A program made the position numbers and the translations under genes. A stretch of DNA of 64,000 bases from Candidatus Heimdallarchaeota archaeon (GTDB lineage Archaea > Asgardarchaeota > Heimdallarchaeia > Hodarchaeales > Hodarchaeaceae): NCBI GenBank assembly GCA_048881705.1, contig JBHLSH010000007.1, positions 1-64,000 on the forward strand, read 5' to 3'. This document shows positions 1,781 through 11,497 of the stretch, one piece after another (the stretch's first letter is position 1; the number at the start of each line of letters is the position of its first letter). The notes below the pieces were generated by a model, which was not told the DNA's origin, ran no database searches, and saw only the letters and a list, made by a program, of their open reading frames with translations.

Positions 1781-3106
1781 GTGAAAACGAGGAGAATCTC
1801 TAGTTTTACCCTTCTTCTATTAATTGTTCTTTTCATCACTAGCATGTGGTTTAAAGTCATAGTGCCCGAGGAACTATCTGCCAAGAAAGAAAACTTAACG
1901 AACTCACCAAAAGCATTGTGGAACCAGTCCTATGGAGTTACTGGAGGGGGAGACGCCCCAGATCTCATCCAAACTAATGATGGGGGGTTTGCGCTTGCGG
2001 GTTCCACTGGGGTAGGGAATGCTTATGGGAGCGAAATGTGGTTAGTAAAAACCGATGATGAGGGAGTTGTACAATGGACTCATACTTACGGAGGACTTGC
2101 CGCTGATTGGGCTAGCGCTCTCATCCAGACAACAGACGGAGGGTATGTCCTTGCAGGTAATACACGGTCGTACGGCGGCGGTGCAGGGGATATGTGGTTA
2201 GTAAAAACTAATGCTATTGGAGTTGCTTTATGGAGCCAAACTTATGGAGGATTCGAGACTGATGAGGCTTCTGCCCTCGTTCAAACTGCGGATGGTGGTT
2301 TTGCGATCGCAGGCTTTACGTCCTCGTTTTATTTGGGTGGTTTTGACATGATGTTGGTGAAAACCAACAGTAATGGGACCGAAGAGTGGATCCAGACTTT
2401 TGGGGGAAAACAAAACCAATTTATCAATTCTGATGATTATGCTACCGCCCTGATCCAAACTACGGATGGCGGTTTTGCCCTCGCGGGGTACAATGTTTCA
2501 TTCGATCAGGGGAGTGATATGTGGTTGGTAAAAACCGATAGGAATGGAAATGCCATATGGAACCAGAGTTATGGAGGTAGAGGTGGTGATGAAGCCTACG
2601 CTGTGATCCAAACACTTGATGGTGGCTTTGCCCTTGTTGGAGTAACCGGGTCATTTGGTGCTGGAGGTGGGGACATGTGGTTTGTAAAAACCAATGCGGA
2701 TGGAGTTATGCAATGGAGCCAAACTTATGGTGGAACTGGATCTGAATGGGCTAGGACTCTCATTCAAACAAGTGATGGAGGATTCGCCATCGCAGGTCTT
2801 ACAGGATCCTTCGGCAATGGCGGAGGGGATATGTGGCTAGTAAAAACTAACGTTGATGGAAAAATTTTGTGGAGCGAGACCTATGGAGGCCCTGAATCTG
2901 ATTGGGCTAGCGCCATGCTTCAAACAGCTGATGGGAGCTTTGTTCTCGCAGGTTTAACAGGATCGTTTGGTACTAGTGGTAGAGACATGTGGCTTGTTAA
3001 AACTATCGGAGGTTCAGACTACAACGGGCCCAATACAAGTCCCCTTCTTTTGGTTTTCGTTATAATTTTACTTTTGACAATTTCCTGGTATAGAAATCGG
3101 AAATAG
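1781..3106 (+). CDS. Secreted, membrane-anchored 7-repeat beta-propeller protein
   Basis: N-terminal hydrophobic signal/TM, seven ~50-aa repeats (W-x-x-TYGG...TxDGGFALAG...DMWLVKT), C-terminal TM followed by YRNRK. Confidence 0.8.
   Translation: MKTRRISSFTLLLLIVLFITSMWFKVIVPEELSAKKENLTNSPKALWNQSYGVTGGGDAPDLIQTNDGGFALAGSTGVGNAYGSEMWLVKTDDEGVVQWTHTYGGLAADWASALIQTTDGGYVLAGNTRSYGGGAGDMWLVKTNAIGVALWSQTYGGFETDEASALVQTADGGFAIAGFTSSFYLGGFDMMLVKTNSNGTEEWIQTFGGKQNQFINSDDYATALIQTTDGGFALAGYNVSFDQGSDMWLVKTDRNGNAIWNQSYGGRGGDEAYAVIQTLDGGFALVGVTGSFGAGGGDMWFVKTNADGVMQWSQTYGGTGSEWARTLIQTSDGGFAIAGLTGSFGNGGGDMWLVKTNVDGKILWSETYGGPESDWASAMLQTADGSFVLAGLTGSFGTSGRDMWLVKTIGGSDYNGPNTSPLLLVFVIILLLTISWYRNRK
1915..3005 (+). 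repeat. Seven intragenic ~150-nt coding repeats (propeller blades)
   Basis: Recurring DNA words such as atgtggttagtaaaaac and gatggnggntttgc, matching seven DMWLVKT-type motifs. Confidence 0.8.
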
Positions 3107-3250
3107 AACGCCTCCAACGGTTTCTTTAATGGTGAAGGTTCTAATTTAATGGAAAGTTAGTTCAGGCCCCTAGGACCAGAAAGAGCAAAAAAATCAAATA
3201 AAGAAAAAAAAACACACCTTCCGCTCTTAATGATGACGGATTGAATAAAA

Positions 3251-3949
3251 ATGGATTTAAAAATCGGGTTAATTGGTGGAACAGGCCCTCAGGGGCAGGG
3301 TTTGAGTCTCCGTTGGGGATTGGCAGGGGAACCCATCATAATGGGATCGAGAAGACAGGAGAAGGCTGATAGGATTTCTTCCGACGTGAATACCAAGCTG
3401 GGGAAAAATCTTGTCACTCCTATGATCAATGAAGCATGTGTACGAGAGTCAGATATAGTTCTTCTGTCCGTACCTTTTGAATTTGCCCTAAGTACTCTTC
3501 GGCCTCTAGAGAAATACTTGACATCTGATAAAATCTTAGTCGATGTAACTGTCCCTCTGAAACCTTTTGAAAAAGGAAAGATGGTAGATCTCCTTCCAGA
3601 ACTTGAAGGTGGAGCTTTAAGTGCGACCGAGTTGATAAGAAGAGAAATTAAACCAGAAGTTCCAGTAGTAGGAGCAATAAAAACGCTATCAAACACCACT
3701 TTGTTGGATATAGATAGATTACCCCTATTGAATCAAGATGTTTATGTTTTTGGCAAAAGTAAACATGCAAAACATCTAGTAAAGGAAAAGGTTGAATTAA
3801 TCCGAAATCTCCGTGCCGTGGATTCAGGGGGTACAAAATCGGCCCGGCATATTGAGCACTTTACTGCCTTCTTAATTGGATTAAATCGCCGTTATAAAAC
3901 GCATGATGCTGGTTTCTCCGTGACAGGCCTTCCACAACGCGATTGGTGA
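3251..3949 (+). CDS. npdG: F420H2:NADP+ oxidoreductase (NADPH-dependent F420 reductase)
   Basis: Rossmann motif IGLIGGTGPQGQGL, IIMGSR, ILVDVTVPL, and a C-terminal segment resembling the family's LNxxY motif (LIGLNRRYK). Confidence 0.9.
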   Translation: MDLKIGLIGGTGPQGQGLSLRWGLAGEPIIMGSRRQEKADRISSDVNTKLGKNLVTPMINEACVRESDIVLLSVPFEFALSTLRPLEKYLTSDKILVDVTVPLKPFEKGKMVDLLPELEGGALSATELIRREIKPEVPVVGAIKTLSNTTLLDIDRLPLLNQDVYVFGKSKHAKHLVKEKVELIRNLRAVDSGGTKSARHIEHFTAFLIGLNRRYKTHDAGFSVTGLPQRDW

Positions 3950-3976
3950 CATTTCCTTTTCGTTTTATCACTTATA

Positions 3977-5698
3977 TCAGAATTTTTTCCTTAATAAGGC
4001 GGATTCTTCACTTGTCAAATGATATAAACGAAATGTAAGCTCATTGATGCATCTTTGGATTGAGTTTTGGTTCCCTAATAGAGGCCGTATCCTTTTATAC
4101 ATATCAGACGTATCGCTGTGACCTCTTGTTATCCTTCGATAGATGTTATGAAATTCCTGGAAATATGTGTTGCTTTTCTTCTGAACAGGACGCGTTCTTA
4201 AGTTTTCCTGGATGATTGATTTGATCTTAGATCCGCAAATAATGAAATGTTCATAAAGTTCTCCAAGTAGAGATATTTCAGAATATTGCCCTTCCTGATT
4301 GGCAAATTCTAGTAAAGATTCGTAATCCAGTGAATCTAGGCTTAGCTCCCGCGAACTCGGATGAAACGGATACCCCTCGTTTGGAACTAGCGGGACTCGG
4401 ATTTTTTCAATATAAGCTCTGTCCAAATCCTTACTTGTGACAAACTGTTTGGTAAATACAACATGACGTAACCACCATTCAATTAATGATGACTGAAGGA
4501 TTGCAGCAAGAACATTCAGAGGAAAAATCGGTCGAGGATTCTTTATAATAACAGTTGTTTCGTGTGGTATGATATTTCCATCAACGTCAACCCAGGGATA
4601 GATGATAAAACTATATGGGTCAGTTCTATAGGGAAGGATACGTTGCAGGATTATTTTCGGGTGTAAATATCTGATTAATACCTTTGGAGGGGTTTCGCTT
4701 GAAACGTAGCTGCTTGAAGGAAAAAGAAATCCCCTTCCCATAGTTTTTTTTTCAATAAGTGGCAATCCTGACGATTGTACGCGATACCCACTGCTGATAC
4801 CTCTGTACGCTTCAACATCCAGAGATCGATATTTGGAGCTAAACAACTTACGAATTAAGGTTCTTTCGTTCTTCAATACCCCAACAAGAAAATTATCAGT
4901 AAGTAAAGCGTCTTGAACCAGTATATTCGATAAGGTTTGAACTGAATGCGTTATCTTATCATATAAGCATGCAATATACCTTGAATCAGGTTTTCTTTTG
5001 CTCATTATTAGGCCTATGTGTTCTTGATTTTGTAGGGCAAATTGATTCCCAAAATCAATCACATAATTGACTTTGTATTCTGTTAATATTAGTTTCCTTA
5101 ATCTATACCATCTTTGTGAGTATAAGAGAGGTTTGGGCAAAACAAAGCCAAGTAACCCACCATCATTTAATGAATCCAAGGCTAAAACGGTGAAAAATAT
5201 TGCCGATTCCTTTGGAAAGCGTTTGTTCATGCTACTAGGGATAAGAGATCTAATATATTCCCATTGAGAGGGAGAATAGCGGGCTGCATGTGGGGGGTTC
5301 CCCAGAATAATATCAAAACCCCATTCATTTTTTTTGCGGTCGTAAAGCTGAAAGAAATCTCCCACGAGATATTCGATCTCAAGGTTTCGAACCGATTTTT
5401 GTACATTCTTCAGCTCCAAGGCTTTAAGGATTGATTTTCGATCTATATCAATACCTAGGAGCCGATGAGTGCTCTTTTTGGTCGCAAGAAACCTTGAGTT
5501 TAATTCTTCTAAGAGGATTTCTAAAAATATGCCTTCCCCGACCGCGGGATCTAAAATATTCAATCCTTGTACTTTTTCCCTAGGAATAAGATCTAGAATA
5601 ATGTTTACGAGGCATTTGGCAATTGGCACAGGTGTGAAGTATTGCCCCATGGCCTTCTTGTTGTTTGGATTTGAAATACTAACTACATTTACCTCCAA
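3977..5698 (-). CDS. N6-adenine DNA methyltransferase, gamma class (TaqI/Eco57I-like), with NPPH motif IV
   Basis: GQYFTP, motif I ILDPAVGEGIF, GIDID, motif IV GNPPH, TRD-like region, C-terminal NELTFRLYHLTSEE helix typical of Eco57I-like MTases. TTG start. Confidence 0.8.
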   Translation of the reverse strand: MEVNVVSISNPNNKKAMGQYFTPVPIAKCLVNIILDLIPREKVQGLNILDPAVGEGIFLEILLEELNSRFLATKKSTHRLLGIDIDRKSILKALELKNVQKSVRNLEIEYLVGDFFQLYDRKKNEWGFDIILGNPPHAARYSPSQWEYIRSLIPSSMNKRFPKESAIFFTVLALDSLNDGGLLGFVLPKPLLYSQRWYRLRKLILTEYKVNYVIDFGNQFALQNQEHIGLIMSKRKPDSRYIACLYDKITHSVQTLSNILVQDALLTDNFLVGVLKNERTLIRKLFSSKYRSLDVEAYRGISSGYRVQSSGLPLIEKKTMGRGFLFPSSSYVSSETPPKVLIRYLHPKIILQRILPYRTDPYSFIIYPWVDVDGNIIPHETTVIIKNPRPIFPLNVLAAILQSSLIEWWLRHVVFTKQFVTSKDLDRAYIEKIRVPLVPNEGYPFHPSSRELSLDSLDYESLLEFANQEGQYSEISLLGELYEHFIICGSKIKSIIQENLRTRPVQKKSNTYFQEFHNIYRRITRGHSDTSDMYKRIRPLLGNQNSIQRCINELTFRLYHLTSEESALLRKKF

Positions 5699-5720
5699 AA
5701 GGAATAGGCATCATCCGGAA

Positions 5721-7697
5721 CTACTTATCAGACTCAAGCATTTTTTTGATTGTAAGAGCAGTATAGCTTTTTCCTGTTAAAACGTTTCCACCCAGAATTA
5801 TAATCCTGTTTTTTCCGTTTTGAATAATAGCTACTACGGATTCTAACTCATTTTGAAATCCAGGATCACTAGTATTAAGAGTGATCCCATTACATTGGTC
5901 CGGAATTGCTAAACAGGATGGATTCATCTCCATACGCTCCTTAAATCGATCGAAAACCTCCATATCAGCGTCACTACCAAGAATTGCGCCTTCGTCTCCC
6001 TCTCTAATCATTGAATTCCTCTGAGCTTGTTCCTTTGTCGCTGTCAGATTGATGAAGAAGGGGCCATATCTTATAAACCGTTTTGCCAGGAATTTCCTAT
6101 GATTGGGATGAGGAGGCAGATCCAGGTTTGTTCCGTCGAATATTACTATTGTTCGTCGATTTTTTCTTAGTAAACACATGCACAACCAGCGTGATAACAG
6201 GTAAGTGTGACGACTTTCCCATGGATGATATGTAGGGTTGTTATTGGTGTATATTTTCCGAATATGGTCCGTAGCCACAATCCGTACCAGTTGAGGATTC
6301 TTTCTTTGACACCTGAGAACGATCGGACGTACATTTGACAAGATTTCGTTAAGTTTCTCTAAGGTATTGCACTTGGGCTGTAGTTCGACCCTTTCTCTCA
6401 TTATATTCAGAGCTCGTCCTATCAGTTCTCGTTCTGAAGCGTTGTTTTTATTGAGAAACAACTGGTCAGTAACATTTTCACCATTTAATATCAAATCGCT
6501 GAGTTCTATTGGCGGATTATTGGCCGCTAACCGTTCGATTTCTAAAAAAATCTCTTTTGTGATGTTGGATTTCCCTCTAAAACCAATATCTTTGGCTATT
6601 TTAAACCACAAATAATCCTTGAGGTATTCTGGGCGAATTGTATAGAGAAATTTCCTCATCTGATATTCTTTGATTGATTTATCTCTCGAAAGTTCAACAG
6701 GAAAAGATTTTGCGTGTACGTTGAGGAGGTGCACGATCTGAGAGGCGGCCCTTTTAGGAAAACGTAAGTCTCTTAAAAGTCGTGTAACATAATCGTTGTC
6801 ACATTTTGGGAATATTCTGGAGGTATTATGGGGAATTGATGAAAGCTGATGTAGCAATGCAGCATATCTTAACCGAATCGAAGCATCAGAGGGTATTGCT
6901 TGTAATACATCAAAAGTAAGGGAAATTCGATCTTGTGATGAAGGTTTTAATTTCGTCTTCATCGCTTTGTGCGCGAAGTCGGGGTATATTTCATATAGGA
7001 GCCCACTTTTTTCCAAAGCAATTAAAGCTTGTTTCCAGTGGGGCGCTGACATCAACCGATCAAGTTCACCTTGAATACGTTCTATTGCAACTTTTACAAA
7101 GGTAGTGAAGTGGTGTGGTATGGCCCTCAATGTGATGGCCTCTATCTCAAATCCCAGCTGAGATACAAAGCGAAAAATCCTAAGGGCTCGTAATCCGTCC
7201 TCTTCTAATCTCTTATGTGGATCTCCAACCATTCGAAGGATTTGGGCCCTAATATCATCGATCCCTCCATAAGGGTCTAAGATCTCCTTCTTGAAAGGAT
7301 CGTATGCAATGGCATTACAGGTAAGATCCCTTCGAGCTAAATCCTGTTTGATATCATTTACAAATTCTACATTAGAAGGACGCCTTCCGTCATTATATCC
7401 CTCTTCAACGCGGAATGTTGTAACTTCAACGGGGTGATTGTTAACAAGAACAGTCACCGTTCCGTGTGGAAGACCAGTCGGAATAACACGGAATCCCAGT
7501 TTTTCTCGAAAGATTTGAATAGTTTCTGAAGGTTTGGAATCCGTAGCGACATCCCAGTCATCTGGCACGATGTTTCCTATTATTAAATCCCTAATTGAGC
7601 CTCCTACAAGATATACTTGCTTCTGGTGGGAGTTCAGATGTCCGCAGATTTCCCATATTTCCTGAGGAATCATATCGTCATTAATTGAGGCAACCAA
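5721..7697 (-). CDS. cca: Class II (bacterial-type) CCA tRNA nucleotidyltransferase with degenerate HD domain and C-terminal permuted P-loop kinase domain
   Basis: VYLVGGSIRD, DWD (DxD), flexible loop FRVEEGYNDGRRPS, DLARRDLTCNA, EDGLR (EDxxR), ERIQGEL. HD region reads AALLHQL. C-terminal ATDHIRK, DGTN, SDADMEVF and GGNVLTGKS. Confidence 0.87.
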   Translation of the reverse strand: MVASINDDMIPQEIWEICGHLNSHQKQVYLVGGSIRDLIIGNIVPDDWDVATDSKPSETIQIFREKLGFRVIPTGLPHGTVTVLVNNHPVEVTTFRVEEGYNDGRRPSNVEFVNDIKQDLARRDLTCNAIAYDPFKKEILDPYGGIDDIRAQILRMVGDPHKRLEEDGLRALRIFRFVSQLGFEIEAITLRAIPHHFTTFVKVAIERIQGELDRLMSAPHWKQALIALEKSGLLYEIYPDFAHKAMKTKLKPSSQDRISLTFDVLQAIPSDASIRLRYAALLHQLSSIPHNTSRIFPKCDNDYVTRLLRDLRFPKRAASQIVHLLNVHAKSFPVELSRDKSIKEYQMRKFLYTIRPEYLKDYLWFKIAKDIGFRGKSNITKEIFLEIERLAANNPPIELSDLILNGENVTDQLFLNKNNASERELIGRALNIMRERVELQPKCNTLEKLNEILSNVRPIVLRCQRKNPQLVRIVATDHIRKIYTNNNPTYHPWESRHTYLLSRWLCMCLLRKNRRTIVIFDGTNLDLPPHPNHRKFLAKRFIRYGPFFINLTATKEQAQRNSMIREGDEGAILGSDADMEVFDRFKERMEMNPSCLAIPDQCNGITLNTSDPGFQNELESVVAIIQNGKNRIIILGGNVLTGKSYTALTIKKMLESDK

Positions 7698-7780
7698 TGG
7701 TAATCAGCAGCCAGTACTATACCCTAATCAATGTACCTTCCGAGGGCGGCACAGTTTTAAGTCAAAATGATGGGATTCAG

Positions 7781-7788
7781 TTTATAAA
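7781..7788 (+). promoter_or_regulatory. Candidate archaeal TATA box (palindromic TTTATAAA) in the divergent cca/MTase spacer
   Basis: TTTATAAA ends 27 nt before the ATG at 7816, consistent with a leaderless or short-leader archaeal transcript. Confidence 0.4.
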
Positions 7789-7815
7789 ACCGTTTATTAC
7801 CCGTTATTTTTAAGT

Positions 7816-10389
7816 ATGAAGGATTTATTTGATGATTTAAAGCCATTTTATAAACAATTTCTCCAGCGAGGGGTTTCCTATGGGTTATCATCGCAGGAAA
7901 TCCATGAAGCAGCGTTGAATTTACTGATTCGAATATTTGGATTGTTTTTCCTCAGAAAATGGGTCTTTAAGTTTGAAAATGGACTATTTGACAACCAGAC
8001 TGTCCGGAATGGACGCAGTTTTCTTTTAAAGTTATTGTTTCAACCTCAGTTCCGTGAGGAGATAGATCTACCGTTTATTATTCGCAATTTATTATCTAGT
8101 TCGCATTATGAAAAACAACTAAAAGATGCATTATCTCAAGAAGAATGGGACGATCTTATTTCTATCCTTTACTCTTATCGGTGGACTCTAGAGGAGAATT
8201 TTCAGCAGAAGATTACTTCCAAGCGAATAATCACACCCGAATTTCTTTCTTTTTTTTATGAGCAGATTCTCTTCGAATATGATAAATTCCTCTCATTAAA
8301 GAGCTCTATTTCTCCAAATAGAAAAAAGAAGGGCATATACTTTACTCCGTGGTTTGTAATTAGGGAAATCACCGATGAGTGCCTTGATCGGTACCGAAAC
8401 GACCAGCGCTCAAGAGATATCGGAGTTACGAGATCAGATGACGGTAAAATAACTATATTAGACCCTAGTTGCGGAACTGGATCCTTTTTGGCCTATGCCG
8501 CAGAGTCACTGTACAGGCGCTTGAAGGATAAAAAAAACATGGTCTTGGCGACATGGATCCTGCAGAATTGTATTTTTGGAGTAGAACTATCCCCAAGTAG
8601 TCTTTTGGTTGCAAAATTCCGTTTAATATGCTGGGCCCTCTCAAAAAACGAGATATCTCTAAATGACCTTCCCTCGAACATATTGATGAATTTAAAAAAC
8701 GGAAATAGTCTTTTTGGAACCTGCAAGGAATCTCTAAGGTATCCATTAGATTATGGAAATACAATTTTCTCTTTGAGCCGCGAACTAGGTAGTATAGGCG
8801 TTCTGGGATTTGATGATAGCGAAAATGACCACATCGATTGGATAAGGATAAGTTCAGCTTTGGAAAAAGCCAGATGGAGCGATAACCATCGTACCAATGA
8901 AACTGTAGCCAAAGTGGAAGCCGATTTATTATCTTTGATTCAAGTCATGTATTGGGAATTTCTGAAGAGAAAATCACCCAAGGTTCGTATAGAAGATCTA
9001 ACAGATCTTAAGCTTTTTCATTGGGAGCATGAATTTCCCCATATAATGTTGGACAAAGGATTTGATATTTGCATTGGGAATCCCCCGTATGGGAGATCCA
9101 TCCTTTCCTCTTTCCAAAAACAGCTTTGCAAATTGCTCTTCCAATCTTGCATTGGACCTTCCAAGAAGTACAGCCTGAATGCTGCTGCTGCCTTTATCGA
9201 AAGAGCAATATCGCTATTAAAACCAAGGGGATTACTAGGATTCATAGTTCCGTTTTCAATATTACGAGTTGAGGAATTTGAAGCGCTTAGAGGGTTCCTG
9301 TTAGAAACCACTCAGGTTTGGAAGATAAGAGACGAAGCTCAAGCTTTCGAAGATGTAACATTAGAAATGTGTTCATTATTTCTCCGAAATACCACCGAAG
9401 CCAATTCCAAGGTCCAGATTTATCCACGTGATCATATCAAGGCGAATTCAAAGATCCCTATTGAACCATTTAGAAAATACGCTCGCTTTATGATTTATCA
9501 CGACGAACTCTGGCAAAAAACTGTAAGAAGGGGTGAAACAAATATTGTTTCAGGAGATTATGGAATAGACCATCGTGTATTCAAAAAAGACCATGTCATT
9601 ACCCCCTCCAGAGATAATTATACGATTTCCTACCTGCATTCTGGTAGATGTGTTGCCCCATTTGGATTAAAACCCCAGTACTTTCAGTATATAAAAGCTC
9701 ATCCCCATAACCAGCGGTTTTTGACTTATTTTAATGAGCCACGCTTGATTAGTACTGCAATCGGTAACAAACTCAGGGTTGCATATAAACCTGAAAAATT
9801 TATTCCTGGAACTAACGTTTCGGTATTAGAAGTTCCCCGTTCATATCAATTCTTACCTATGCTAATTTTATTAAACTCTGATCTCCTTAATTATGTCTTA
9901 AAACGTTATATATTGAATTTTTCACGACTAACGGTATATCTTCACAAATACTATACAAAACTTCTACCCATCGTCTACCCAAAGAAATGGGAAATCGAAT
10001 TTACCAGTTTAGCCACCTGGCTTATTTTTCTATCTCAAGAGACCATTTTCGAGCGAAAAAAGGTAAAAGGGCTTCGATTTTTGCGTAGTCTGGCGAACCT
10101 ATTAGTATATGAACTTTATTTTCCCGAATCAGTAGAGGTTCATGAGCTAACGCTTGATTACGTCGGAAAATATCTGAAACCTTTGGATATCCATACATAC
10201 CTAGACCTGGTACTATCAGGACGACCACTTCACGATTCGGAGAGGGAAACCTTGGATCACCTGATACAACAAAACAGTTCAGCCGTTTATAGGGGTATAA
10301 ATTTACTCCGGCATGACGAAGTCATTAGAGAGGCCAAAAGAAATTTGCAACAAACTTCAATCGTAAAACGCATTCGTATAGAGCTGTAA
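7816..10389 (+). CDS. Large Eco57I/TaqI-like N6-adenine DNA methyltransferase (no nuclease motif recognised)
   Basis: GIYFTP, ILDPSCGTGSF, FGVEL, FHWEHEFP, FDICIGNPPY, TaqI_C-like TRD, C-terminal LVYELYF. Confidence 0.85.
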   Translation: MKDLFDDLKPFYKQFLQRGVSYGLSSQEIHEAALNLLIRIFGLFFLRKWVFKFENGLFDNQTVRNGRSFLLKLLFQPQFREEIDLPFIIRNLLSSSHYEKQLKDALSQEEWDDLISILYSYRWTLEENFQQKITSKRIITPEFLSFFYEQILFEYDKFLSLKSSISPNRKKKGIYFTPWFVIREITDECLDRYRNDQRSRDIGVTRSDDGKITILDPSCGTGSFLAYAAESLYRRLKDKKNMVLATWILQNCIFGVELSPSSLLVAKFRLICWALSKNEISLNDLPSNILMNLKNGNSLFGTCKESLRYPLDYGNTIFSLSRELGSIGVLGFDDSENDHIDWIRISSALEKARWSDNHRTNETVAKVEADLLSLIQVMYWEFLKRKSPKVRIEDLTDLKLFHWEHEFPHIMLDKGFDICIGNPPYGRSILSSFQKQLCKLLFQSCIGPSKKYSLNAAAAFIERAISLLKPRGLLGFIVPFSILRVEEFEALRGFLLETTQVWKIRDEAQAFEDVTLEMCSLFLRNTTEANSKVQIYPRDHIKANSKIPIEPFRKYARFMIYHDELWQKTVRRGETNIVSGDYGIDHRVFKKDHVITPSRDNYTISYLHSGRCVAPFGLKPQYFQYIKAHPHNQRFLTYFNEPRLISTAIGNKLRVAYKPEKFIPGTNVSVLEVPRSYQFLPMLILLNSDLLNYVLKRYILNFSRLTVYLHKYYTKLLPIVYPKKWEIEFTSLATWLIFLSQETIFERKKVKGLRFLRSLANLLVYELYFPESVEVHELTLDYVGKYLKPLDIHTYLDLVLSGRPLHDSERETLDHLIQQNSSAVYRGINLLRHDEVIREAKRNLQQTSIVKRIRIEL

Positions 10390-10513
10390 ATGGCGAAATT
10401 ACTGTTCCAGAATTGTGGAAAGCCAGAACCATTCTTAACTTTAGGGCAGTGGTCGTGATTTGGAATGAAATAGGGGGGCCGTAAATTCTTTAATTTTTTG
10501 ATATATGACATAA

Positions 10514-11497
10514 TTGATTCAAATGTTATCTGAAATTGGTGCTGCATATTCCAGAATCAAGAGCCACATTAATAAAACTCCAGTTTTAACTTCTCGTACC
10601 TTAAATAGAAAATTAGATATGAATGTATTCTTTAAATGTGAAAATTTCCAGAGAGTCGGAGCGTTTAAATTCAGAGGTGCCCTGAATGCCCTAAGCCAGC
10701 TTTCCTTATCGGAAAAACAGGCCGGGGTCATTACTCACTCGTCAGGGAACCATGCACAAGCAGTAGCCCTCGCATCGCGAGAACTTCAGATAAATGCTAC
10801 CATTGTTATGCCCGAAAATGCTCCCAAGGTCAAGAAAGCGGCTACCGAAGGATATGGGGCCAATATAGTCCTTTGTGGAAATAACCCAAATGACCGGAAG
10901 GATAAGGTTGAAGAATTAATACAGGAATTCAACTATGAGCTTATTCATCCATATAATGATTTTCGGATTATTCATGGTGCAGGAACAGCCGCATACGAGC
11001 TTTTAAAGGAGGTGGGGGATCTCGACCTAATTGTCGCACCAGTGGGGGGAGGGGGCCTGCTTAGCGGAACTTCGATTGCTGCCAAAGGATTAAATAAGGA
11101 CATTGCCGTACTAGGCGTAGAACCATTAAACGCTGACGACGCATTTCGCTCGTTTCAGGATGGAACTAGAATTTTTCCTTCTATTAATCCTAACACCATC
11201 GCGGATGGCTTAAGAACATCTTTAGGGGATATTACCTTTGATATAATTAAGCAAAACGTTGATGGAATTGTGCGGGTGACAGAAGAAGGCATCATCAACG
11301 CCATGCGCTACCTATGGGAGCGAATGAAGATAATCATTGAACCTTCTGGAGCAGTTCCGTTGGCGGGACTATTTCAACTGAAAGAAAATCCAGAAGAGTT
11401 TGATTTCGATGATAAGAGAGTGGGTGTAATCTTATCCGGTGGTAATATCGATTTAACGGATTTCTTTAATCTTTTAAGAAAAAAATTGGTTTTGTGA
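10514..11497 (+). CDS. PLP-dependent serine/threonine dehydratase (serine racemase-like, catalytic domain only)
   Basis: FKCENFQRVGAFKFRGA (PLP lysine), HSSGNHAQA, PVGGGGL, TIADGL, IEPSGA, ILSGGNID. No ACT domain. Confidence 0.92.
   Translation: MIQMLSEIGAAYSRIKSHINKTPVLTSRTLNRKLDMNVFFKCENFQRVGAFKFRGALNALSQLSLSEKQAGVITHSSGNHAQAVALASRELQINATIVMPENAPKVKKAATEGYGANIVLCGNNPNDRKDKVEELIQEFNYELIHPYNDFRIIHGAGTAAYELLKEVGDLDLIVAPVGGGGLLSGTSIAAKGLNKDIAVLGVEPLNADDAFRSFQDGTRIFPSINPNTIADGLRTSLGDITFDIIKQNVDGIVRVTEEGIINAMRYLWERMKIIIEPSGAVPLAGLFQLKENPEEFDFDDKRVGVILSGGNIDLTDFFNLLRKKLVL

Follow-up and report, generated by a model that had tools for sequence, protein, structure and literature searches.

A class II CCA-type tRNA nucleotidyltransferase fused to a circularly permuted P-loop kinase in Hodarchaeaceae

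The 64,000-nucleotide stretch of DNA analysed here (the window) comprises positions 1 to 64,000 of contig JBHLSH010000007.1 from a Candidatus Heimdallarchaeota archaeon of the family Hodarchaeaceae (assembly GCA_048881705.1). On its reverse strand, one open reading frame (ORF; 5721..7697, 658 residues, with the stop codon at 5721-5723 included) encodes a two-enzyme protein made up of a class II CCA-type nucleotidyltransferase and a permuted P-loop kinase. The second enzyme (residues ~468-658) is a circularly permuted P-loop kinase of the DxTN family, from the clade of PSTK, Kti12 and Pnk. Its body, running from β2 to β5 and a C-helix (residues 468-627; 5817..6296, reverse strand as for all features of this protein), was delimited with a canonical-kinase profile and with VIA-align, whereas the β1-Walker A-α1 element (residues 631-656; 5730..5807) has been relocated to the C terminus, as indicated by conservation, DSSP and a two-chain model. 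Both the fusion and the permutation had been proposed in an initial annotation made from the sequence. The former was borne out by profiles, motifs and a model of the body and tail, and the latter by profile matches in two pieces that merge into one after de-permutation, as well as by structure models. We are highly confident that the kinase fold is real and permuted. The fusion is taxonomically narrow and structurally clear.

Sequence and structure of the permuted kinase

In an alignment of 19 orthologues, which are 38-85% identical to the window protein, the kinase residues T476, D477, R480, F520, T523, N524, N561, R565, S575, A577, R631, G637, N638, V639, L640, G642 and K643 were invariant, and D521 was nearly so, with Glu replacing Asp in one orthologue. 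These columns cover the Asp/Arg pair after β2 (D477-H-I-R480, DHIR; 6258..6269), which is equivalent to D35/R38 of T4 Pnk and D41 of PSTK, the DxTN motif on β3 (D521-G-T523-N524, DGTN; 6126..6137), the lid residues N561 and R565 (NSMIR; 6003..6017), to be compared with the RNxxR motif of PSTK, and the Walker A motif GNVLTGKS (residues 637-644; 5766-5789). PSTK, Kti12 and the polynucleotide kinases belong together in the DxTN family, which has been defined previously along with the roles of residues including PSTK D41 and T4 Pnk D35/R38 (PMC2275090). The invariance of G637, N638, V639, L640, G642 and K643 at this level of divergence argues that the C-terminal Walker A is not a chance motif. Judging from the sequences, the full phosphoryl-transfer set appears to be kept, namely the Walker A Lys and Ser, the Asp-x-x-Arg after β2, the DxTN motif and the distal lid Arg. 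Since all these residues are conserved, an active enzyme would be expected, and the domain is probably active as a kinase or an ATPase. The kinase motifs quoted in the initial annotation, as well as the His-Gln pair in the body, were all found at the positions given there. The C-terminal strand and helix are also present, but they extend over 5730-5807, slightly wider than the 5764-5793 originally noted; the element reads RIIILGGNVLTGKS...

In an exhaustive search of 1.8 billion representatives with the kinase-domain profile, the matches outside the family and its fragments were all stand-alone kinases of the canonical type, 174-250 residues long. These relatives pass the Pfam AAA_33 cut-off, and most of them pass the Kti12 and zeta-toxin cut-offs too. 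They align to query positions 32-176 from about their residue 45, past the strand, Walker A and helix at their N terminus, and the two best carry CGNVGTGKT as compared with the C-terminal LGGNVLTGKS of the fusion. A local hidden Markov model (HMM) built from nine canonical kinases matched all 19 proteins in two out-of-order pieces, with HMM positions ~47-190 (the body) at residues ~466-625 and positions ~8-47 (the P-loop) at residues ~614-654; in the window protein, positions 48-183 matched residues 471-620. When the C-terminal element was moved in front of β2, the de-permuted sequence gave one continuous match (positions 23-188) with approximately the summed score. Conversely, an HMM of the de-permuted family aligned end to end with the canonical kinases. 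A comparison of the kinase-domain profile with PDB sequences produced only chance matches to phage proteins (E~0.1). Language-model features and ESM Atlas shapes retrieved AAA_33, zeta-toxin, Kti12 and adenylate-kinase clusters, all canonical, and neither kind of ESM Atlas search revealed a second permuted family.

The AlphaFold2 (AF2) model of residues 440-658, computed from a 7-sequence alignment (pLDDT 78.5, pTM 0.79), contains five strands, the last of which (632-636) is followed by a loop and a helix; confidence is highest in this C-terminal element. Because DSSP calls a strand only where there is a hydrogen-bonded partner, strand 632-636 belongs to the sheet. The top VIA-align match was archaeal PSTK (3a4l; Z 9.2, rmsd 3.3, 136 aligned residues, model 28-190 onto chain 31-171), followed by Kti12 (Z 8.7), PFK-2 (8.4), a putative kinase (8.3), chloramphenicol phosphotransferase and the Clostridium thermocellum polynucleotide kinase CthPnkp (both 8.0), and T4 Pnk (7.8). 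In all top matches the aligned part of the model was ~28-190 and the target began at residue ~25-40. The sequential alignment thus omits the first strand-loop-helix of the targets and the last one of the model, as a permutation predicts.

We also ran ESMFold2 with the body (460-624) and the C-terminal piece (625-658) as separate chains, including ATP and Mg and three controls. The ipSAE was 0.78, compared with 0.01 for the best of the 3 controls; of 80 solved complexes, 58 attain the pass mark used, as do 2 of 110 mismatched pairs. Across runs, at least 91% of the contacts were common and the pLDDT of the partner was at least 75. The contacts with the least error joined residues 632-636 to 518-521 (the DxTN strand) and to 544-550 (β4), so that the model places strand 632-636 in the central β1 slot of a 2-3-1-4-5 kinase sheet. 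Packing of the C-terminal P-loop into the kinase sheet, which the initial annotation required, was therefore seen in two independent models.

Part of the evidence, however, weighs against a permuted kinase. The C-terminal 219 residues alone score below the AAA_33 cut-off (E 0.018, 15.8 bits vs a cut-off of 27), with a match to profile positions 25-141 of 143, so that the Walker A part is missing from it. Foldseek found nothing in the PDB at E<=0.001 for the kinase model and ranked unrelated alpha/beta folds best, although this null result is expected when a sequential aligner meets a permuted chain. The VIA-align Z scores of 8-9 are moderate and tied within 1, which names a clade and not a function, and they may mean only a common arrangement. 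Finally, as solved P-loop kinases are abundant, the two-chain pass may partly reflect memory of them; it speaks for likeness to the canonical fold and not for binding.

The fusion has in common with the DxTN kinases (PSTK, Kti12, T4 and bacterial Pnk, and stand-alone AAA_33 proteins) the Walker A, Asp-x-x-Arg, DxTN and lid Arg motifs, a five-stranded sheet and the position of the P-loop strand between β3 and β4. It differs from them in chain order, which is β2-3-4-5 and then β1/P-loop/α1, and in the loss of conservation of the proximal lid Arg. Another difference is the missing C-terminal domain for tRNA binding, in whose place the fusion has the CCA enzyme. With respect to fold evolution, the cut lies exactly between α1 and β2, and the ATP-binding element is supplied last.

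Natural circular permutation of the P-loop NTPase fold is known from the GTPases YlqF/RbgA, YjeQ/RsgA and Lsg1, which belong to the TRAFAC class and have another cut point. In the laboratory, engineered adenylate kinase permutants have shown that a P-loop kinase can tolerate relocation of its termini to many positions without losing activity (PMC3351165; PMC6061844), but adenylate kinase is another family. Our literature search for natural permuted P-loop kinases found only permuted GTPases, methylases and engineered adenylate kinases.

As to its origin, the proposal that the permutation arose from a duplicated and then trimmed kinase is plausible, but a search for a relic of a first-copy P-loop ahead of β2, which would record a tandem duplication, found none. 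As donors we considered three small canonical AAA_33 kinases of the same genome (about 183-193 residues; C18:22222-22680, C44:15213-15581 and C143:235-570) and rejected them, as the best of them (contig C18, 188 residues) matches more weakly than database relatives. The C18 kinase has TDxxR and SDAD motifs in common with the permuted domain and is not its closest relative.

The CCA-adding half and its HD-like body

The ORF has two candidate starts, a TTG at 7695-7697 that gives the longest frame and an ATG at codon 9 (7671-7673). The database copy P0002 begins at the ATG, and the orthologues start within a few residues of one or the other. A Pfam scan of the whole protein matched only the head and the neck. 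The head (residues 28-155; 7233..7616) contains motif A (GGSIRD...DWD) and motif B (RRD) and matches PF01743 (PolyA_pol) with E 8e-35, at 120 bits vs a cut-off of 23. The neck (residues 182-242; 6972..7154) matches PF12627 (PolyA_pol_RNAbd) with E 5e-11, and motif D (EDGLR; 7188-7202) lies just upstream of it. The body and tail (residues 243-462; 6312..6971) are all-helical according to the AF2 model and Foldseek.

CCA motifs A (GGxxRD, DxD), B (RRD), C, D (EDxxR) and E are all invariant in the 19 orthologues; the invariant residues include G32, G33, R36, D37, D47, D49, R122, R123 and D124 in the head and E166, D167, G168, L169 and R170 in motif D. Head and neck matched the CCA enzymes of Planococcus (6ibp) and Bacillus stearothermophilus (1miv) with E 1e-47 and 1e-44, respectively. 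The flexible loop between motifs A and B aligned without gaps to these full CCA enzymes, whereas CC-only enzymes have a deletion there. Among NCBIfam models the nearest was the Bacillus-type CCA enzyme model NF009814, which matched only residues 17-249 and at 241 bits, under its equivalog cut-off of 290.

A profile of residues 235-462 matched no PDB sequence. The AF2 model of the body and tail (pLDDT 91.4) had as its top Foldseek match the B. stearothermophilus enzyme (1miv_A; prob 1.00, TMq 0.54, E 0.075); other class II enzymes were matched as well (prob 1.00, TMq 0.54-0.58, E about 0.08), and HD-domain hydrolases ranked below them with lower TM. The fusion therefore resembles the Bacillus-type enzymes 1miv and 6ibp in head and neck sequence, motifs A-E, the undeleted flexible loop and the fold of body and tail. 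It differs from them in a body and tail that have diverged past sequence detection and in the extra 190-residue kinase domain after the tail. From its sequence, the N-terminal ~460-residue part belongs to the CCA-type tRNA nucleotidyltransferases of class II and is Bacillus-like; it comprises head, neck, body and tail and should be catalytically intact, and CCA addition is the activity predicted from its active site. In vitro activity of one Hodarchaeum class II enzyme has been reported in a preprint whose accessible part leaves the paralogue unspecified (10.64898/2026.05.29.728689).

The initial annotation further described a degenerate HD phosphatase region, whose activity it suggested may have been replaced by that of the kinase. 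The first part holds: at the dyad position all 19 orthologues have His-Gln (H283-Q284; 6846..6851) instead of His-Asp, and Pfam HD (PF01966) does not match the protein even at E<=10. The body is an HD-like helical fold, weakly resembling HD hydrolases, without the metal-binding dyad. NF008137 matches residues 27-288 with its positions 2-260, which puts the His-Gln near model positions 255-256, presumably about where the HD of the Escherichia coli enzyme falls on this model. That enzyme, a multifunctional CCA protein with an HD phosphatase, likewise pairs a nucleotidyltransferase with a second phosphoryl-group enzyme, but the fusion has neither the dyad nor an HD profile match. The second part, replacement of an active phosphatase by the kinase, is unsupported, because the nearest solved relatives are Bacillus-type, no HD profile matches and the plain class II paralogue in the same genome is likewise without an HD dyad.

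Possible substrates of the kinase and alternative explanations

The explanation that we favour, with little better than even confidence, is that the protein joins an intact CCA-type enzyme to a permuted kinase that phosphorylates a hydroxyl of tRNA. By analogy with the DxTN members that act on tRNA or RNA, namely PSTK, Kti12 and Pnk (PMC2275090), we lean somewhat towards a tRNA or another RNA as the substrate of the kinase, and a tRNA hydroxyl is our best guess for the phosphate acceptor. In the proposed arrangement, the chain would enter the kinase at β2 straight from the last tail helix, ~seven residues after it, and continue through β3 (DxTN), β4, the lid, β5 and the C-helix, with β1, Walker A and α1 coming last and folding back centrally between β3 and β4. 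The CCA scaffold would hold a tRNA, and the tethered kinase would move the γ-phosphate of ATP to a hydroxyl of the held tRNA or of a partner tRNA. Candidate acceptors are a 5'-OH terminus, which is what Pnk phosphorylates, and the 2'- or 3'-OH of a ribose. Phosphorylation of 5'-OH ends by Pnk-type enzymes in RNA repair provides a precedent (PMC7824862).

A different target is suggested by geometry. In class II enzymes, the tail is the part that binds the tRNA elbow. With the kinase attached to the end of the tail, its target may therefore be internal and close to the elbow, or it may act in trans within a dimer: in cis, the kinase would be nearer the elbow, the variable loop or the D-arm than the acceptor end, and only in a dimer or with a second tRNA would it reach tRNA ends. 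ArkI, reportedly an archaeal tRNA U47 2'-kinase that phosphorylates an internal ribose near the elbow and variable loop, would be a precedent for internal tRNA phosphorylation in archaea, although we take its fold to be protein-kinase-like and not of the P-loop type as in the fusion.

Several observations speak against an RNA-directed kinase of this kind. Attachment at the tail end would place the kinase far from both the 3' and 5' ends of a tRNA bound in cis. In the lid, N561 and the distal R565 are invariant, but the proximal position 560 can be Arg, Lys, Leu, Gln or Met, so that the proximal Arg of an RxxxR lid is not conserved. Enzymes that phosphorylate small molecules belong to the DxTN kinases as well (PFK-2, gluconate kinase, chloramphenicol phosphotransferase, zeta toxins), with structural scores nearly equal to those of the RNA kinases. 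Partners for a repair reaction were not found either: there is no adjacent phosphatase gene and no phosphatase module in the protein, and no RNA ligase is encoded among the ORFs at 1781-11497, no genome-wide search for a ligase having been made. With no phosphatase or ligase partner near the fusion, the end-healing function suggested in the initial annotation remains at the level of inference. The Pnkp/Hen1 RNA repair system is similar in that a nucleotidyltransferase is combined with a second phosphoryl-group enzyme next to a methyltransferase gene, but the fusion has no phosphatase or ligase, and the neighbouring methyltransferases are of the DNA N6-adenine type and not Hen1.

A more specific version, which we put forward only tentatively and consider rather doubtful, is that of a CCA-delivered tRNA kinase, the first natural permutant of a P-loop kinase, which would complete the 3' CCA and phosphorylate the same tRNA. 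It would leave a 5' phosphate or a ribose mark for repair, quality control or conflict, possibly as one module with the two N6-adenine methyltransferases. If true, such an enzyme would be at work in archaea closely related to the ancestor of eukaryotes. A CCA enzyme with its own kinase points to an undescribed step of tRNA maturation, repair or control in Asgard archaea, and in practical terms the protein could serve as an existing scaffold for recruiting a kinase to tRNA.

The best surviving alternative, although unlikely, is that the permuted domain is a Kti12-like tRNA-dependent ATPase or switch, which would use ATP hydrolysis to control how the CCA module binds, releases or proofreads tRNA and would not phosphorylate RNA. 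In the structural ranking Kti12 comes second, and we know of no phosphate acceptor for it; moreover, the ATPase of PSTK is stimulated by tRNA (PMC2275090). A pure ATPase, however, would have no need of the Asp-x-x-Arg pair and the DxTN Thr, both of which are invariant in the fusion. In T4 Pnk these residues presumably hold the acceptor.

Another explanation, which we regard as improbable, draws on the genes on either side. The downstream co-directional gene (3977..5698, reverse strand), starting 22 nt after the stop codon of the fusion, encodes a 573-residue N6_Mtase/Eco57I-type methyltransferase, and the divergent upstream gene (7816..10389, forward strand) an 857-residue Eco57I/N6_Mtase/TaqI_C methyltransferase. 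The three genes could form a defence or conflict module, in which the CCA scaffold would direct the kinase to the acceptor end of tRNA and so prevent aminoacylation, or in which the protein would repair conflict-damaged tRNA. PrrC, which is located inside a type I restriction-modification locus, offers a parallel, and the fold matches include kinases of the zeta type, whose target is the 3'-OH of a nucleotide. In all 15 contexts the fusion is flanked by two such Eco57I/PglX/MAD2-like methyltransferase genes, with the 857-residue one adjacent in every case and the 573-residue one wherever the contig extends far enough. Both look like DNA methyltransferases by the Alw26I, PglX and MAD2 models, all below cut-off; the smaller has NPPH in place of NPPY, and the larger has a TaqI_C specificity domain. 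Close orthologues of both occur only in genomes that carry the fusion, but as the five genus-mates without the cluster are merely more distant relatives, this co-occurrence is not independent evidence. Against a defence role, PADLOC finds nothing for the fusion, the cluster contains no nuclease, ligase, phosphatase, antitoxin or mobile-element gene, the locus is in conserved synteny with metabolic genes, and the fusion evolves no faster than the plain CCA paralogue.

We consider it just as improbable that the kinase acts on a small molecule (a nucleotide, sugar or cofactor) and that the fusion is a device for co-expression only. The structural matches to PFK-2, gluconate kinase, chloramphenicol phosphotransferase and adenylate kinases are about equal to those of RNA kinases, and the closest canonical relatives, P0017 and P0018, adjoin genes for generic HAD hydrolases. 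A co-expression device is difficult to reconcile with retention of the fusion through the whole history of the clade and with the short, rigid linker from the tail helix, and the best sequence-level names of the canonical relatives are PSTK and Pnkp (the top NCBIfam scores of relative P0020 being the PSTK and bacterial Pnkp models, below cut-off). P0017 and P0018 (loci L038:202-1489 and L039:4430-5753) have a GNVGTGKT P-loop, and in each case the HAD-family hydrolase gene follows directly, a pairing that recalls the Pnk-HAD end-healing enzymes, although the HAD is of a generic type.

Very little speaks for the absence of a functional permutation, in which case the kinase body would be dead and the C-terminal P-loop either a chance motif or what is left of a second, truncated domain. 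The native sequence does remain under the AAA_33 cut-off, and Foldseek gave nothing significant. This explanation is nevertheless largely refuted by the invariance of the Walker A element and catalytic residues over 38-85% identity, by the strand within the sheet (AF2) and in the β1 slot (ESMFold2), and by the conservation of the stop codon and the next gene in all contexts. A rebuilt O-phosphoseryl-tRNA(Sec) kinase is the least credible explanation in spite of PSTK being the top structural match, and we rejected it because SepSecS was not found in the genome (91% complete); in addition, TIGR03574 misses the locus and finds only small canonical kinases, far below cut-off.

Distribution, paralogues and CCA enzyme classes

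A word-indexed search found seven relatives of equal length with the same C-terminal element, which carry the NCBI labels Thorarchaeota or Hodarchaeota; members of the family are named 'CCA tRNA nucleotidyltransferase' or 'hypothetical protein' in their sources. The kinase domain is present in 17 of the 22 genomes of the window's genus-level clade, each time in an open frame of 650-700 residues. It was not found in the other 378 genomes sampled from the phylum, where the sole further match was weak and in a 170-residue frame. As the same architecture occurs in 17 genomes, two of which are single-contig assemblies, an assembly chimera is excluded, and the homologues keep the C-terminal element as had been predicted. 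The five genus-mates without the fusion are the more distant genomes. A comparison of the empty site in these five failed, since the PALP neighbour was only 38-40% identical and the F420 gene was mostly not found.

In addition to the fusion, the window's genome (91% complete) carries a second, plain class II gene of 385 residues (contig C47; L002:1396-2553) with intact motifs and 32% identity to the fusion over 289 residues. Between motifs A and B, its loop reads RREHFHAPGKPP and is not of the ExxYxDGRRP type. A plain paralogue of ~373-414 residues exists in all 17 carriers of the fusion (two copies being cut to ~210 residues). Fusion and paralogue diverge at the same rate (41-48% vs 38-45% identity), and neither therefore looks dispensable.

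We did not find a class I CCA enzyme in the window's genome, and class I was present in only 2 of 21 genus-mates. Most other families of the class have class I. The statement in the initial annotation that archaea normally use class I enzymes is dated for the Hodarchaeales, for which the 2026 preprint describes class II enzymes only, some or often as A and B paralogues (10.64898/2026.05.29.728689). Our survey of the genus, with class II paralogues and class I mostly missing, is in agreement with that account. In these Asgard archaea, the archaeal class I enzyme has been replaced by two bacterial-type paralogues. In that preprint the C-termini are described as variable and no kinase is mentioned, and we found neither the kinase fusion nor the permutation there, in the literature or in source names. 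Class II CCA enzymes have thus already been reported from this lineage (10.64898/2026.05.29.728689), whereas the fusion and the permutation appear to be new; the kinase would give the preprint's 'B paralogue' a concrete, testable difference.

In two genomes of the same genus (G059 and G075; 87% and 93% complete), neither a class I nor a class II gene was found; the assemblies may have missed the CCA genes, or these genomes may encode an enzyme of a third kind.

Farther from the fusion in the window, a gene at 1781-3106 on the forward strand encodes a 441-residue protein with about eight copies of a ~45-residue repeat (GGFALAG.T.SFG.GG.DMWLVKT....G...W..TYGG) and hydrophobic segments at its N- and C-terminus. 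This protein is only 60% identical in a genome in which the other neighbouring genes are 82-94% identical.

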